A DNA stretch of 64,000 nt from Octopus vulgaris (lineage: Eukaryota). Shown here one piece after another: positions 10,704-53,848 of the stretch (its first letter is position 1; the number at the start of each line of letters is the position of its first letter). The notes below the pieces were generated by a model. It searched no databases. It was not told where the DNA came from and saw nothing but the letters and a program-made list of their open reading frames with translations. A program made the position numbers and the translations under genes. The DNA lies in the NCBI GenBank assembly GCA_951406725.2, contig OX597830.1:42718001-42782000 (forward strand), given 5' to 3'.

Positions 10704-12560
10704 CAACAACAACAACAATGAAATTATTGTGTATAGTGCTCAGGTGCACTACAGCTTATCAAAGGTGCATGTACAATACATAGAATTATGTTCAAAAGTC
10801 AGGAACGTGAACAGTGTATGAGTCATGATATACGTGTGTGCATACATATGGATGGAGGGGGATTTTAGGTGTAGTGTTGGCGAATTTCAAGAAGCATGGC
10901 GGTTTTAAAGGATGCAATGTCTCAGCATCTAACAACTGATGCAAGAAGTTTGTTCCATGCTTCAGCAACACTGAGTGTTAAATAATGTTTCTGAAAGTCA
11001 TGGGAGCTGTGCTGTTTTCTAACTTTGTAGGAATGCCCACATGTGTGTAGGAATTACACACATGGAGTTCAAAAAGGTGCTCAAGGTGGTTGTTGGCACT
11101 ATGGTTAATAAATTTGTGGGTGTCTACCAAGTCAGTTGCCAGATGTTGGAGCTTCAATGTATCTATGCCCAGGGAAGCAAGGCATTCAGAGTATGGTAGA
11201 TGCCTGATGGAGGGTAATTGCTTGGTTGCATGTCCCTGAACAGTTTCCAGGAGGTCAATGTCCTGAGTAAGATAGGGGTTCCAGACTAGTGATGCAAATT
11301 CCAAGTGTAGCCACACCATAGCCATATACAACCTTAAATAGATAACTGGAGGGTGGCTGACAAAGGTCTTGCTGAGTGATGCTAAGACACTCTCAGCCTT
11401 CTTGTCAATTTTAGAGATGTGCTTTGTTCAGTGCAAATTGCTGCCGACAGTAATGCCCAGGTCACGTTCACAAGAAGACTCCTTGATTTTAGTGTTGTGG
11501 ATGGAGTATGTGGATGCTGGGTTTTTCCTCCTAAAATGCATGGTGGTATACTTGTCCACAGCCAGTTTGAGTTGCCAGTCTGTGATCCATTGCTGCATTG
11601 TGTCTATATCTGATTGCAGGAAAGATCTATAGTGTTCAGGATCTGTCCTTTTTATCTCAAGGTACAGCTTGATATCATCTGTATATTTCAGCTCTGTGGC
11701 ATTTTTTAAGTTGGCATCTATGTCATTAATGTATGCAACAAACAAAAGGGGACCAAAAAGAAATCCCTGTGGTACACCAGATAACATCTCATAGAGTAAA
11801 AAATGCTGTCCTAGAACCATGACTATCTTTTTTTGGCTGAGAATGAAGGAATCCAACCAGTTAAAAAGATCATCCTTCACACCCATTACAGAGAATTTTG
11901 CTATAAGTCTTTTGTGTGGCACAGAATTAAAAGCTTTAGCAAAATCAAGGTAAACAACATTCACCCATGAGCTGCCATCAGTGACCTGGGTGATGTCTTC
12001 AAGAAGCTTGATAAGTTGATCACAGCAGCTGGAGTGAGGGATGAATACAAATTGTGAGGGCCAGATAAGGCTGTGAGAATTCCAAAAGTTACTGAGTGTT
12101 CCTCTGACACAGGGTTTCATGCAGCTAGTAGGACTGACTGGGTGATAGTTGACAGGTAACATGCGGTCACCCTTTTTGATCAGAGGAATGACACTGGTAA
12201 TTAAGAACATTTCATTCTGTATTTGTCTGGATTCTTGATTAATGCCTGCTCTCATTTCATCAACTGTTGCTGATTTTTGTACTATAGACTTTATGTTTTA
12301 AGTATCCCCACAAATAAAATGTCCAGTTGTGTGTGGTTCAGTGAATGGTGGAAGATATTCCACTGAACTTCTTTGTCCAGTCTAATCAAGATAGGCCCTT
12401 ACATTACTGTGGTAATATTGGGCTGCTCATCTTGCTGCAAATAAAACTCCAGATTCTCTTGAATGCTTGGCATAACAGATTGTTACAGCAAGTTCAAGTA
12501 AGCAGGGGCAGTCAGAGTATCATACAAAAAGAATGGTTCAATTAATCCTCTAATGATAAG
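10668..12560 (-). mobile_element. CR1-clade LINE, 5'-truncated and degenerate
   Basis: ORFs 11428-12255 (YLDFAKAFNSVPH, GVPQG, YTDD) and 10978-11331 (HLEFASLVWNPYL...); (ATT)n-type tail at about 10668-10718. Confidence 0.9.
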
Positions 12561-43544: not shown

Positions 43545-43843
43545 ACTTTGATCTGTTTTTTATATTGAATACGTATCGCCACCGTGGGCCACTACATCGA
43601 ACACTTTGAACATATAGCATAAATGAACTTACTTCAAACTATATATGAACTTTAAGATGTCTGACTCCGTTGTGAATTGTAAATGAATTTCTTGTGTTTG
43701 ATGGCATGAGCTGTCTTTTTTTATATATAACTTTTTTTGATAAGGTTCATTTCAGGAACCGAAACATGTTATAATGTATATATAAAAATTAAAAATTGTA
43801 TAATATAGCAGCATTTTCGAACTTCATTTTTTACAAATATATA
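43545..43843 (+). repeat. 5' pseudo-LTR of the PLE
   Basis: Direct repeat of 49095-49393. Confidence 0.95.
43716..43790 (+). ncRNA. Minimal type I hammerhead ribozyme motif, U3-A8 core variant
   Basis: TTGATAA (43737-43743), stem II GGTTC/GAACC, GAAA, palindromic stem III ACATGT, GUU triplet; distal stem I tttttatatata/tatatataaaaa. Confidence 0.75.
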
Positions 43844-44466: not shown

Positions 44467-44878
44467 CTTGTATACGAGCTAATCCTATTATAAGTATCAC
44501 ATCACGTACGAGCTCCCGAAAATGCCTGCTAAAAAAGACACCAATGACATCTCCTCAATAAATGAAGAGATACTGAAAGAATTGAAAAGCATAAATTCAA
44601 ACCTAACAGCAGTGTTAAACAAACTCAACCTTAACACCTCGACCTTCTACACAAACTAACGAGGAAACCGAATCGAATAAAACACCCTCTGAAATATTCG
44701 AGAAAGTTGAAAATCTATGCGATACAATGACGACATTCTTCACAAACTTTACGAAACAAGAGCAACAAAAAGAAGGAACACATGAGAAGAACCGAGCAAC
44801 TTCAACATTACAAATAAAGAACCAAGTCCTCCCCAATGGAGAACACTACAGCGAAACAGAAAATTCGCTTTTTGGAAA

Positions 44879-45922
44879 ATGATACAAAATCAGAATAAAG
44901 CAGAGATTTACCAAAAATGGCTAGACTCAACACCCCTAGTCATACCCCCTAAATTACAAATCAAGCCCATCTCGGAAGAACCAGAAGAACAAAGAAAACT
45001 TAGAGAAAAAATGTCATTAGACAAAATGAAGATGGAAATAGAACTACTCAAGCTGAGAGCTAAGACGAATGGAGAAAAAGTAAAAACCATAGACGAGGAA
45101 ATCAACGAAGAAGTCATCAAACTAATAGACGACATCAAAACTGAAACATTACCAGCACTATGGAATGAAGAATGTGAAAAAGAGGAACTTAAGTCCCTCC
45201 AACGATGGGAAAAGAGCGCCATCTGGTTTCTAGATTATGAAACCAACTTCAAAAATGAACACATATCCAACAACCCCTTCATAAAATTAAGTAAATCAAA
45301 ACCAAATACCAACAGAACGGAACAACCACCAAGAAATCCTAACACACTTTACACCAGAAAAGTACACCTAAAACACACCCCACACTACCTACACCAACCC
45401 CAAAACACCTGCAGAGGCCCACCACACCAGTTCGAAAATAGACATACCAACAGAGCAGAACAACCACCAAGAAATCCAAACACACCCTACACCAGAAAAA
45501 TGCATTTAAAACGCACCCCACACTACCTACACCAACCCCAAAACACTTATAGGGTCCGACCACACCATTCCACGAACCTAAGAGCCACAACATACAATAC
45601 TATAAAATACAACCCACATAACCAAACCAAAACGCTACTACCAAACATCCACCCCAGGAACCAACCATACAAACATAACAAACAACAAATGCACTACGGA
45701 GGAAACAACTACCAACACAATATACCTGATGAACTAAGACGGAACACTAGGTACAACAACACACTCCAGAACAGAGCACCACAAACTCACTCTGACAATT
45801 ATAACAACATGAGACAGATAAATAGTAGCTTTGAACATAACTACACCAACCATTTTTTAGACCTTACACACAGGAACAGGGACACACGATGGCAAAGGAC
45901 AAACAAAAGAAACCTCAGGTAA
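44879..45922 (+). CDS. PLE ORF1 (charged helical/coiled-coil-like N half, N/H/P/Q-rich C half); probably began at ATG 44522
   Basis: 347-aa ORF directly upstream of and overlapping the RT ORF, with the same A/C-rich strand bias; upstream coding-like segments 44522-44659 and 44619-44882 in shifted frames. Confidence 0.8.
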   Translation: MIQNQNKAEIYQKWLDSTPLVIPPKLQIKPISEEPEEQRKLREKMSLDKMKMEIELLKLRAKTNGEKVKTIDEEINEEVIKLIDDIKTETLPALWNEECEKEELKSLQRWEKSAIWFLDYETNFKNEHISNNPFIKLSKSKPNTNRTEQPPRNPNTLYTRKVHLKHTPHYLHQPQNTCRGPPHQFENRHTNRAEQPPRNPNTPYTRKMHLKRTPHYLHQPQNTYRVRPHHSTNLRATTYNTIKYNPHNQTKTLLPNIHPRNQPYKHNKQQMHYGGNNYQHNIPDELRRNTRYNNTLQNRAPQTHSDNYNNMRQINSSFEHNYTNHFLDLTHRNRDTRWQRTNKRNLR

Positions 45923-48186
45923 TTAAGATAATCAATCTCTCAAACAAAGAACTTACACCTAACGAAATAAGCATACTCTCCAAAGGACTTAAATTTACAC
46001 CTACCCCACAACGTTCTAATTACTATGAAATGAAAGATGATATTTCGGAATTTTGCAGAAAACTAAGACTCACCGAGGCATTTCAAGACAAAAAAATAGA
46101 GGAGGACCCAATAGCTAGAAACAAGAGCAATTACACCCCCACCAAGGGAAAGAATAAAGCCTTAGACCGCTATTGTGACTACATAACTAATTTCCCGTTT
46201 CAATTCATCAAGAAACAAAAACACAGCCCTAACTTCAACAAAAGAGAATGGAACGACCTCATCAAACTAAGAGAAGACAAAACAATAACAATTAAGGAGG
46301 CAGATAAGGGCAACGCGATAGTAATAATGAATACAAACGATTATAAAAATTTAGTGCTATCCCTATTAAGAGATGAAACGTATTATGAAAGGGCCCAACA
46401 GTATAATCAGCAAAAAATAATGCATAACCTTAGGACATTAATCAACACATACCAAGAAGGACTCACGAACAAGGAGTATGAATACATCACTAACTTCAAA
46501 TGCAAATCGAGTTTGTTCTATGGTATCCCTAAGGTACACAAAAGCCAAATAATTAGAGAAACGTGCAAAACATCCACCGACACACTCATCAAAATCCCTT
46601 CACCAAATGATCTTAAACTAAGACCGATAATAGCAGGGCCAGCATGTGAAACTCACCGCCTCAGCAATTTCTTAGACACACTTCTTAAACCTTTCCTAAA
46701 ACACATTAAAAGCTACGTAAGAGACGATATAGATATGCTCAACCACCTCCCTAAAAGAGTCAATGAGAAAACCCTTCTAGTATCATTCGACGTAGTTAAT
46801 CTTTATTCTAACATCCCTCACAACCTAGGAATAGAAGCGATCACCTTCTGGCTGAATAACTACCCCTTTGAACTCCCAACTCACATAAACAAAGACCTTA
46901 TAATAGAAGGACTTAGATTCATTTTAGAGAACAATTATTTTATTTTTGACAATGATTTCTACAGACAAAGATCGGGAACAGCGATGGGCACGCATACTGC
47001 ACCATCTTTTGCCAACCTAGTGATGGGATACCTCGAGAAAATACTATACCGGATAACACTCGAGAAATATGGAAACACCTTCGCCACCTATATCCATAAC
47101 AACTGGAAAAGATACCTCGATGACTGTTTCATCATCTGGGACAAAGGTATAGAGAAACTTGAGGAATTTAAAATACTATTAAATGGAATAAATGACAATA
47201 TACAATTCACGATGGACCACAACGAAAAAGAATTACCATTTTTAGACATCCTCATTAAGAAAACCGGCAACAAAATAGAGACAGATATCTACTATAAACC
47301 GACAGACTCTAAACAGTACCTACCCTTTGATTCATGCCACCCACGACACACTAGAATGAATGTCCCTTTTTGTTTAGCTAGAAGGATTTGCACCATAATA
47401 TCAGACACAAACACCCGACACACACGTCTCCAGGAACTTAGAACCACACTCACAAATAGAAACTATCCACAGCCCCTAATAGACAGTGCAATCCAACGGG
47501 TACTTAAATTAAATATAGAAGACCTGAGACAAACAAAACCAAAAAAGAAAGAACAATTAAAAACCCTTCCCTACATCTCTACACACAACCCACTCAACAA
47601 TGAGGCCTTCAACACCATACTACAAAGCACAGCCCTACTAAAGGGAGACCCAAAGATGAACCGGATCCTCGAAACATACACCATCATTAAAAGTAAACGG
47701 CAACCAAAATCCTTGAAAAGGATTTTAACCCAAGCTACACTGCACTCAACATCAACCACAAAACCAGCAGTTAGAAAATGTGGAAGGCCCAACTGCGGAA
47801 TCTGTGTCATCTTGAAAGAAGGATCAGAATTTATACTGGAACAAGGCCACCAGTTCACCATTAGAACAAACTTCACCTGCGCATCAGAAAACTTAATTTA
47901 CGTCATAACATGCGCAGGCTGCAATAGGCAGTATATAGGCCATACAAAAAATAGCTTACGTAACAGGATGGGGGTGCATAAATCACAAATTAGAAACCCT
48001 GATTACCGCAAAATACCGGTCAGCGGACACATAGATAGATGTGCTGGAAATGTAAATCCGAAATTTACAACTAACCCGCTCTATAAATTCAGTGACAACG
48101 CAACCTTCACACAACGCCAAAATAAAGAACTGTATTTCATAAAAAAATTTAGACCAAGTTTAAACACCCTGGGCCAGGAATATTAA
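45889..48186 (+). CDS. Penelope-like reverse transcriptase + GIY-YIG endonuclease
   Basis: INLS..L...GLKF.PTP, ADKG, SFDVVNLYSNI, QRSGTAMG, RYLDDCF, LPFLD; Cys linker CGRPNCGIC; NLIY..TC..C...YIG.T....R...H; terminal E..FI.....LN; uninterrupted 765 aa. Confidence 0.97.
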   Translation: MAKDKQKKPQVIKIINLSNKELTPNEISILSKGLKFTPTPQRSNYYEMKDDISEFCRKLRLTEAFQDKKIEEDPIARNKSNYTPTKGKNKALDRYCDYITNFPFQFIKKQKHSPNFNKREWNDLIKLREDKTITIKEADKGNAIVIMNTNDYKNLVLSLLRDETYYERAQQYNQQKIMHNLRTLINTYQEGLTNKEYEYITNFKCKSSLFYGIPKVHKSQIIRETCKTSTDTLIKIPSPNDLKLRPIIAGPACETHRLSNFLDTLLKPFLKHIKSYVRDDIDMLNHLPKRVNEKTLLVSFDVVNLYSNIPHNLGIEAITFWLNNYPFELPTHINKDLIIEGLRFILENNYFIFDNDFYRQRSGTAMGTHTAPSFANLVMGYLEKILYRITLEKYGNTFATYIHNNWKRYLDDCFIIWDKGIEKLEEFKILLNGINDNIQFTMDHNEKELPFLDILIKKTGNKIETDIYYKPTDSKQYLPFDSCHPRHTRMNVPFCLARRICTIISDTNTRHTRLQELRTTLTNRNYPQPLIDSAIQRVLKLNIEDLRQTKPKKKEQLKTLPYISTHNPLNNEAFNTILQSTALLKGDPKMNRILETYTIIKSKRQPKSLKRILTQATLHSTSTTKPAVRKCGRPNCGICVILKEGSEFILEQGHQFTIRTNFTCASENLIYVITCAGCNRQYIGHTKNSLRNRMGVHKSQIRNPDYRKIPVSGHIDRCAGNVNPKFTTNPLYKFSDNATFTQRQNKELYFIKKFRPSLNTLGQEY

Positions 48187-48359: not shown

Positions 48360-49040
48360 ATTCTGATTGGTCAACATGTTGATGACGTCTAGTTCTGCTA
48401 GAATGGACAGGATACAAACAGGGGGCAGAGATTAGTCAGAATATTGATGACGTCCTTTTCTACTTGACTAGTCACCTAACAAGAAACAGACAGGGGGCAG
48501 ATCTAATGCAGCTATAAGTCGTGATTGGGCAGAATCTTGATGACGTCCCGTTCTGCCTGACTAAGCCACCTAACGAAACGACTGGTCAAACAGGATACAG
48601 ACAAGAGGCAGTTATAATACAGCGATAGGTCACGATTGGTCAGAATGTTGATGACATCCAGTTCTGCTTGACTAAGCCACCTAACGAAAAGGGGCAGATC
48701 TAATACAGCTATAAGTCGTGATTGGTCAGAATCTTGATGACGTCCCGTTCTGCTTGACTAAGCCACCTAACGAAACGACTGGTCAAACAGGATACAGACA
48801 AGAGGCAGTTATAATACAGCGATAGGCCACGATTGGTCAGAATGTTGATGACGTCCCGTTCAGCTTGACTAAAGCCACCTAACGAAACGATTGGTCAAAA
48901 CGTTGATGACGTCACGCTACGCTGGATTGACCACCTAACAGGCATTATAAAACCCGAACATTTCACAAGACTCACCAGAATTCACCAGAATCACCCAGCG
49001 AACACCCACCATGGGTCATCACAATTGCTCAAGGTAAAAA
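48360..49040 (+). promoter_or_regulatory. Putative internal Pol II promoter in the PLE 3' region: 7x (ATTGG + TGACGTC) array, TATA box, mini-exon and splice donor
   Basis: Seven gattggtca..tgatgacgtc-type units (perfect TGACGTCA at 48907), TATAAAA at 48946, caccATGG at 49011, AAG|GTAAAA at 49033/49034. Confidence 0.65.
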
Positions 49041-49094: not shown

Positions 49095-49382
49095 ACTTTG
49101 ATCTGTTTTTTATATTGAATACGTATCGCCACCGTGGGCCACTACATCGAACACTTTGAACAGATAGCATAAATGAACTTACTTCAAACTATATATGAAC
49201 TTTAAGATGTCTGACTCCGTTGTGAATTGTAAATGAATTTCTTGTGTTTGACGGCATGAGCTGTCTTTTTTTATATATAACTTTTTTTGATAAGGTTCAT
49301 TTCAGGAACCGAAACATGTTATAATGTATATATAAAAATTAAAAATTGTATAATATAGCAGCATTTTCGAACTTCATTTTTT

Positions 49383-49393
<11 letters not shown>
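49095..49393 (+). repeat. 3' pseudo-LTR of the PLE
   Basis: Direct repeat of 43545-43843, runs into (TA)n. Confidence 0.95.
49266..49340 (+). ncRNA. Second copy of the U3-A8 hammerhead motif
   Basis: Identical to 43716-43790. Confidence 0.75.
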
Positions 49394-52590: not shown

Positions 52591-52710
52591 CCATTGTATT
52601 TTATGCTTTGAACATTAACATATAAATGAGTATATTTATGCACAAATATTTGCTAATGTATTATGCATCAGTGTTTTTTACATATCTTTTATGGTATTTT
52701 CTATTTGCAG

Positions 52711-53848
52711 ATATCATCAAAAATATTTGTGTATCATCCAATTGATATCCATGTGTTCTCTGCTAATTTTATCTGTGTTCTGCTTTACCAATATGTTTTT
52801 TCTCATACACCACCAATTCGGTATTAAATCAACCAATGTAAATGATAATTCTGAAACTAAAGCATCAATTTGTGTCCCTCAAAAAAATATAGTCTTTCTG
52901 AAAGTACACAAAACTGGAAGTACAACGATTATGAATATACTACAAAGGTATGGCATTATAAACAACTTAAACTTTGTTCTACCAAAAAATGGACACTACC
53001 TTGGCAAAACTGAAACACTTATGGAAAATAAAATCCTTCCACCTCCTCAAAATGAGTCCTACAACATTCTTTGCAACCATGTTATTTATAATCAAAGTGC
53101 TTTTCAGAGTCTACTTCCAAGAAATATGTACTATTTTACAATTTTGCGAGAACCTTTAAGTCAATTTGTATCTGCTTTCTTGTATTATAGGAATGTGTGG
53201 AGAAATGAATATCTTCTGGCAGTACCTGGAGAACATTTTATAGGTGAATATCTAAAAAATCCAGTAAAGTATGAATCACTGCTAAAAAATCAGGGATTTT
53301 CTTACACAAATAACCGCATGTCATATGATTTAGGTTTGAAACTATCTGATTTCCATAGTGAGGCTAAAATTTCAAAGCATATTTCTGATTTGGATAAAGA
53401 CTTTCACTTAGTATTGATCCAGGAATATTTTGATATTTCAATGATTCTTCTGAAAAGAAAATTATGTTGGCAAATGAAAGATATGCTTTATATAGAAAGG
53501 AATGTAGCTTCTTCCAGAAATACTCCTATCTTAACAGCTGAAGATACAAACCGTTTTAAAAAATGGGCTAAAGCTGACTATATACTTTATGAACATTATT
53601 TGAAAGTATTTTGGCACAAAATAAGGACTGAAGAGGATATTTTGTCTGAAGTTTATCATTACCAATCATTACTATATCAAACAAAGAAATTTTGTATGAC
53701 CAAGAATTCTTTAGTTTTAGAAATACAAGCCAGTGTTTGGAACAAAGAAATACTTTTACTGAGAAAAGACTGTGACATTATGCTTAAAAGTGAATTGGAC
53801 TTAGTGTATGCTTTGCAGAGAGCATATAGGGAAAAACTAAATTTATGA
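52711..53848 (+). CDS. Galactose-3-O-sulfotransferase (GAL3ST / cerebroside sulfotransferase family), main exon
   Basis: Acceptor ttttctatttgcag| at 52710; N-terminal TM segment; PAPS-binding motifs IVFLKVHKTGSTT and TILREP..QF.S.F.YY; N.M.YDLG, F.LVLI.EYFD.S.ILLKR.LCW, D..LY.H. Paralogue number cannot be assigned by eye. Confidence 0.95.

Follow-up and report, generated by a model that had tools for sequence, protein, structure and literature searches.

A probable −1 frameshift signal between ORF1 and the reverse transcriptase-endonuclease of a Neptune-type Penelope-like element from Octopus vulgaris

A stretch of 64,000 nucleotides from Octopus vulgaris (contig OX597830.1, positions 42,718,001 to 42,782,000 of the forward strand; hereafter, the window) contains a retroelement with two overlapping open reading frames, ORF1 and a reverse transcriptase (RT) ORF, and the question raised by this locus is how the RT comes to be translated. 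The initial annotation had proposed a −1 frameshift at an in-phase U_UUU_UUA heptamer. The heptamer was found in the phase described, read in the ORF1 frame as CAT TTT TTA GAC, and the RT ORF was confirmed to lie in the −1 frame, opening past the TAA at 45838-45840 and continuing through ATG 45889 to its end (Table 1). The site is an X_XXY_YYZ heptamer in phase inside the ORF overlap, as in classical −1 PRF, and its T6 run is unique within 44523-48186, where T makes up 19% of the bases.

The retroelement and its two reading frames

The RT ORF encodes an RVT_1 domain (aa 260-442) plus, at the C-terminus, a GIY-YIG endonuclease (aa 685-772), and the element is bounded by pseudo-LTR (pLTR) terminal repeats; both features are those of endonuclease-bearing (EN+) Penelope-like elements (PLEs). 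A putative, degenerate hammerhead-like motif was located in each pLTR, with its helix II appearing in the fold of the 3′ copy; no hammerhead was detected in the pLTRs with Rfam, the scan of the window yielding microsatellite noise only. Such motifs are known from Penelope pLTRs (PMC4209133; this and the other sources cited here were covered in part). The linker N-terminal to the endonuclease shows the CX2-5CxxC pattern with a long spacer found in Neptune and Naiad and not in Nematis, in a by-eye comparison with the alignment in Fig. S2 of PMC8557442. Since RT and GIY-YIG are combined with direct repeats carrying hammerhead-like motifs and with a Cys linker resembling that of Neptune, the element is assigned from these sequence features to the EN+ Penelope-like retrotransposons of Neptune type, with a separate ORF1.

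Neptune EN+ PLEs, in the part of PMC8557442 covered, share the order of RT and C-terminal GIY-YIG, the Cys-rich linker, the direct pLTRs, the hammerhead-like motif (putative in the window) and the (TA)n flanks. Canonical EN+ elements in the same source have a single ORF, whereas two ORFs are found here, the group being characterized by a separate ORF1 of 400-480 aa that overlaps the RT in the −1 frame; by contrast with this group, the ORF1 of a killifish Neptune is short and does not overlap (10.1101/2025.05.22.655539). Membership in Naiad/Chlamys was rejected, since it needs an N-terminal endonuclease and GIY-YIG is C-terminal here, as was membership in Athena/Coprina, for which the endonuclease has to be absent.

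The element belongs to a young family with many copies 97-100% identical in the 2.8-Gb genome. At one locus (L081) two copies with the same junctions follow each other in a partial-tandem arrangement, which Penelope elements typically show. The 3′ non-coding repeats are complex, each with a TGACGT/GATTGG-like core, and are possibly promoter or enhancer elements. Elsewhere in the window another RT fragment (10978-12297, minus strand; RVT_1, E 4.6e-23) is interrupted by a stop, and a 409-aa frame at 52619-53848 (plus strand) matches galactose-3-O-sulfotransferase (E 2.5e-59) and represents a host gene exon.

Table 1. Features of the element in the window (coordinates counted from the first nucleotide of the window; codons counted from the UUA of the heptamer).
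Feature	Coordinates	Strand	Remarks
5′ pLTR	43545..43843	+	299-nt direct repeat, 99% identical to 49095-49393
Minimal hammerhead-like motif, degenerate core	43737..43764	+	within 5′ pLTR; regex scan
ORF1	44523..45922	+	intact copies: 466 aa, with a helical/coiled-coil N-terminal domain and an N/R/Q/H-rich tail
Internal tandem duplication in ORF1 tail	45306..45567	+	138-nt spacing
RT-endonuclease ORF	45841..48186	+	781 aa stop to stop, −1 frame, intact
Slippery heptamer U_UUU_UUA, ORF1 phase	45853..45859	+	sequence; kept in other lineages
ORF1 codon +11, TGG (Trp)	45890..45892	+	putative pause site; overlaps ATG 45889
ORF1 stop TAA	45920..45922	+	21 codons past UUA
C-x4-C-xx-C zinc-finger-like linker	47779..47805	+	N-terminal to endonuclease; by-eye comparison with Fig. 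S2 of PMC8557442 (part covered)
3′ non-coding tandem repeats	48365..48929	+	41-nt core, 7 copies
3′ pLTR	49095..49393	+	includes second hammerhead-like motif at 49287-49314; (TA)n next

In comparison with an intact copy, ORF1 of the window is broken by a gain of 1 nt near 44629 and a loss of 1 nt near 44831; the RT frame is whole. The fusion of about 1,100 aa predicted earlier from Met 44879 has to be revised, since this Met is internal and intact copies begin at an ATG matching 44523, and the intact ORF1-RT fusion would be of ~1,220 aa (by arithmetic, 446 + 775). A structure model of ORF1 (pLDDT 75.7) predicts four long helices. No Pfam family scored above the cut-off in eight of eight ORF1 proteins, the fold search gave no PDB match at E ≤ 0.001, and there was no usable Atlas match. 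When 1.84 billion representatives were searched with a profile built from the ORF1 core, with the tail excluded, 1,067 clusters were recovered at E ≤ 0.001, and by this count the core is a large unannotated all-helical family. By analogy, ORF1 possibly has a role in RNA packaging. Retrotransposon proteins of animal type (P0029, P0039, P0066 and P0080; loci L161-L166) were found in records labelled as MAGs or as genomes of bacterial symbionts, most probably through host contamination. A viral-contig scan gave no relatives in 50 pattern matches.

The heptamer in family copies, other lineages and ORF1 proteins

Homopolymer runs are error-prone, and a single missing T had been raised as a caveat to the heptamer. 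Among 48 distinct family copies, which as top matches are biased to young copies, 44 read T6A, two T5A and two carry a substitution, T7 being found in none, so that the family is T6 and the caveat falls. With many families and independent data sets agreeing with these 44 copies, a sequencing or assembly artefact, or chance, has a negligible probability and is regarded as refuted.

The heptamer and its phase are conserved in related two-ORF elements down to ~40% RT identity. Across 19 lineages from this genome and from metagenomes the site is in phase as T6A in 16, T6G in two and T7 in one; five of these are represented by decayed copies, and an in-phase site was the criterion by which the further lineages from the genome were chosen. 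In family B (65% RT identity) the heptamer is present in 11 of 12 copies, the twelfth being 5′-truncated, and ATA replaces the ATG. Families C, D and E retain the heptamer, one C copy seeming one T short and one C-type copy being truncated, and the T7 family K reads U_UUU_UUU in phase in 6/6 junctions (five longer loci, one of which repeats L206). Among 86 outside loci, seven of the close class have a whole junction, all seven with T6A or T6G in phase; two more of this class are a T5 relative of a counted locus and an incomplete one. Distant loci (about 25-33% identity), where they could be anchored, are mostly long single frames, and no significant ORF1-domain match was obtained in any of them. 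A heptamer-anchored pattern search of the genome served as a lead only, since the motif is built into it. A sample unbiased for the heptamer was obtained by choosing 20 genome loci by RT motif alone, and in this sample in-phase T6A is present in nine loci and in-phase T7 in two, seven have a T5-T7 run that an indel has shifted, and two have no such run.

The heptamer has left a corresponding pattern in the ORF1 proteins. For the tail counts the best 150 of the 1,067 clusters were pooled with earlier matches to give 152 proteins once P0196, a 1624-aa repeat protein, had been removed; the counts were restricted to the 78 that reach 330 aa or more, the 74 shorter matches being left out. Phe-Leu (68) or Phe-Phe (3) occurs in the last 70 aa of 71 of these 78 relatives, with ~15% expected, and K, E, Q, M and W, none of which has a codon ending in U, are absent from the position preceding Phe (0/71; tail frequency 19.6%). 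In the database proteins the heptamer is read from amino acids only, and this pattern is taken as the family-wide trace of U_UUU_UUR. Seven of the 78 have neither Phe-Leu nor Phe-Phe. The excluded matches comprise 51 without either dipeptide, four with the motif at most seven residues from the end, three with it at +11, five at +21 and 11 elsewhere. In P0155, P0256, P0269, P0133 and P0135, which have no Phe-Leu, D-F, N-F, V-F or Y-F lies 11-13 codons before the stop; to judge from the proteins, these tails could mirror G_GAU_UUU, A_AAU_UUU or G_GUU_UUU heptamers.

Together with the in-phase position of the heptamer, these patterns suggest that the RT-endonuclease is very probably made as an ORF1 fusion by −1 frameshifting at U_UUU_UUA. 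Such a fusion could also be produced if RNA polymerase or reverse transcriptase slipped on the T run and supplied U7 templates, as slippage of HIV RT at U6A has been reported (PMC5737442); T5 copies exist, and one family B copy (L207, about 212,136,100) carries a T7 allele in which ORF1 and RT are fused in one 1008-aa frame. Fusions thus arise but are rare: no entry longer than 802 aa is found among the 150 matches listed, the 120 RT homologs reach 803 aa at most and lack an ORF1 domain, and no longer, fused ORF1 protein was seen among 8000 candidates scored (weak evidence). No T-run indel was among those listed for four runs guessed to be RNA. Polymerase slippage, which in addition leaves the 11-codon spacing described below unexplained, is considered highly improbable.

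The sequence TTTTTTAG could instead act as a 3′ splice acceptor, the consensus of which it matches, with the RT made from spliced RNA. The heptamer is followed directly by G in 16 of the 19 lineages, and Penelope elements are known to have introns (PMC8557442). However, the sequence is T6-GT in L083 and L161 and T7-AC in family K, and these T6G and T7 variants without AG argue against splicing, as does the fixed phase to ORF1, a constraint that splicing would not impose. Among the joints listed for four of four guessed-RNA runs there is none at 45860/45861, and a contig from one such run, covering 45520-46393 without a gap, crosses the site, although contigs cannot show absence. These runs consist of contigs only and are uninformative on expression. 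With this evidence, splicing is scarcely credible as the source of the RT.

Stops and pause motifs downstream of the heptamer

In agreement with the initial annotation, which had seen no strong downstream hairpin, folding of the window sequence gave z values of +0.8 to +2.1. MFE folding of the 19 lineages found no conserved stimulatory stem-loop 5-9 nt downstream, z ≤ −2 being reached in only two of them; L082 is an exception with a real hairpin (z −4.2).

A regularity was found in the position of the ORF1 stop, counted in codons from the UUR codon of the heptamer. The stop lies at +11 in 22 of the 71 proteins and at +1 to +10 in none, where a crude constant-rate model using the later stop rate expects ~2.4 and ~37, respectively; control anchors in the same ORF1 tails were flat. 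At the DNA level the stop is at +11 in seven of 19 lineages and earlier in none, and codon +11 is Trp in five. Among the 49 proteins with later stops, 11 carry a published collision motif, P-[PGD] or R-X-K, at +9 to +11 (background 1.3%). Further classes among the 71, picked post hoc, are Gly-Gly (5) and Trp (3), and 30 of the 71 show neither a stop nor a recognised motif at +9 to +11. The same motif test gives a second P-X/R-X-K peak at +6 (codons +4 to +6; 9/71). Gly is frequent at +1 and +3 past Phe-Leu, and G-rich residues occur in many ORF1 tails. In a hand count over the 19 lineages, C is found directly 3′ of five of the seven stops at +11 and of none of the 12 other stops.

In human cells, ribosomes queued behind pause sites and stops give disome-profiling peaks at 11-codon intervals, and collision-prone stops carry a +4 C (10.1101/710491). 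In reporters tested in E. coli, the −1 shift of the trailing ribosome is boosted when a stop lies 8-10 codons beyond a slippery heptad (PMC6815119).

The stops at +11 are not evenly distributed, 19 of the 22 rows falling within one supported clade of a quick tree, and binomial expectations therefore overstate the support. Minimum state changes on this tree are seven for stop-at-11, four for the Pro motifs and three for Arg-X-Lys, and the clustered states represent several, not dozens, of independent events. The stop, Trp, PDP, KEK and RKK states are all found within this one genome.

These sequence patterns make it reasonably likely that the frameshift is stimulated by a paused leading ribosome and not by folded RNA. 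Most ribosomes would stay in the ORF1 frame until codon +11 occupies the A site and would pause there, the pause signal in relatives being a stop, Pro-Pro/Pro-Asp or Arg-X-Lys at that codon. A trailing ribosome would then queue with UUU and UUR in the P and A sites and, its translocation being blocked, would slip by −1. The outcome would be much ORF1 protein and little fusion enzyme, in a ratio linked to ribosome load. In the family of the window, with Trp at +11 and the stop at +21 (~two footprints), the pause would come either from the Trp codon or from two ribosomes queued behind the stop. This is the weakest step of the queue reading, and Trp, which is absent from the cited collision motifs and is overlapped by an AUG in good context, counts against it, as do the 30 of 71 relatives with nothing recognised at +9 to +11 and the second motif peak at +6.

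The −1 shift could alternatively be driven by the slipperiness of the heptamer itself, by a scarce Leu tRNA, by a bound protein or by an undetected pseudoknot, with the 11-codon pattern being inherited or serving some other purpose. In HIV-1 a rare UUA tRNA increases shifting at U6A, and stimulation by proteins also occurs (PMC7618472); for SARS-CoV-2 the placement of the stop has an effect through a different cause, pseudoknot refolding (PMC8168617). The clustering of stop-at-11 on the tree and the G-rich residues after Phe-Leu in many tails also speak for this explanation. It fits poorly with the lack of any stop nearer than +11 in 71/71 proteins and 19/19 DNA lineages, with the occurrence of distinct motif types at one register across clades and all within this genome, and with the fact that no common downstream nucleotide motif is evident by eye across the 19 lineages. 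We regard it as possible but unlikely.

ATG 45889 of the RT frame has, as stated in the initial annotation, a good context, and it overlaps ORF1 codon +11, so that separate synthesis of the RT, by internal initiation or by stop-restart at the codon overlapping +11, has to be weighed. ATG-G is found at this place in families A and C and CTG-G or TTG-G in others, and many database RT gene calls start with a Met ~10 residues ahead of the first motif. However, the seven stop-at-11 lineages read ATA, CTA, GTA or GTG and never ATG, and stop-restart is disfavoured because 0/7 of these stops overlap an AUG; nothing resembling a start codon is found at this place where the lineage has PDP, KEK or RKK, and separate initiation would leave the heptamer unexplained. 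The downstream AUG is not conserved either, since a Met precedes the N-terminal RT motif in only two of the 19 lineages, and the first Met comes as late as aa 134 in family K and, in families D and E, aa 154-155. Separate initiation is improbable as the general route; in the family of the window it is a possible side route, and AUG 45889 could give a minor RT-only product.

Comparison with known systems and implications

With HIV-1 gag-pol (PMC7618472, part covered) the element has in common the U_UUU_UUA heptamer and a structural-type ORF ahead of the enzyme ORF. Unlike HIV-1, it has no stem-loop and is neither an LTR element nor a virus, and a stop or putative pause lies 11 codons downstream. 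The engineered E. coli collision signal likewise places a heptad one ribosome length before a stop with no RNA structure; that signal is synthetic with a 9-codon optimum, whereas the present one would be natural and eukaryotic, would have a spacing of 11 codons and would use alternative pause motifs (PMC6815119). Among PLEs, the Fig. 1 legend of PMC8557442 gives a type, its clade unnamed in the part covered, in which ORF1 is set apart by a frameshift and pseudoknot. In that type, and probably in the window element, a frameshift joins a coiled-coil ORF1 to the RT of a PLE; the window element differs in that it carries an endonuclease and that MFE folding shows no conserved structure downstream. 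We take the frameshift-pseudoknot type to be the endonuclease-less Athena/Terminon. The literature search found no description of the present signal in EN+ Penelope elements in the parts of the sources covered; an earlier mention is possible. Neither Penelope nor Athena appears in the part covered of a 2016 frameshifting review.

A broader reading, held with confidence only somewhat above even, is one in which a large animal PLE clade (>1,000 ORF1 clusters) uses a natural, structure-free signal composed of a U-rich heptamer and a pause exactly one footprint downstream. Lineages would have swapped the pause type in that slot, among a slow stop, Pro-Pro/Pro-Asp, Arg-X-Lys, Gly-Gly or Trp, and collisions would be purposely stimulatory. 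In the usual account of −1 frameshifting a slippery site is combined with RNA structure or a bound protein; a natural signal relying on ribosome queues would add a third kind, otherwise found in the literature searched only as an engineered bacterial reporter. If this is true, enzyme output of these elements would depend on ribosome traffic. The single-ORF picture of endonuclease-bearing Penelope elements would give way, in a large clade with an unannotated ORF1 family, to a gag-pol-like one, and automatic RT gene calls of these elements are probably wrong at the N-terminus.
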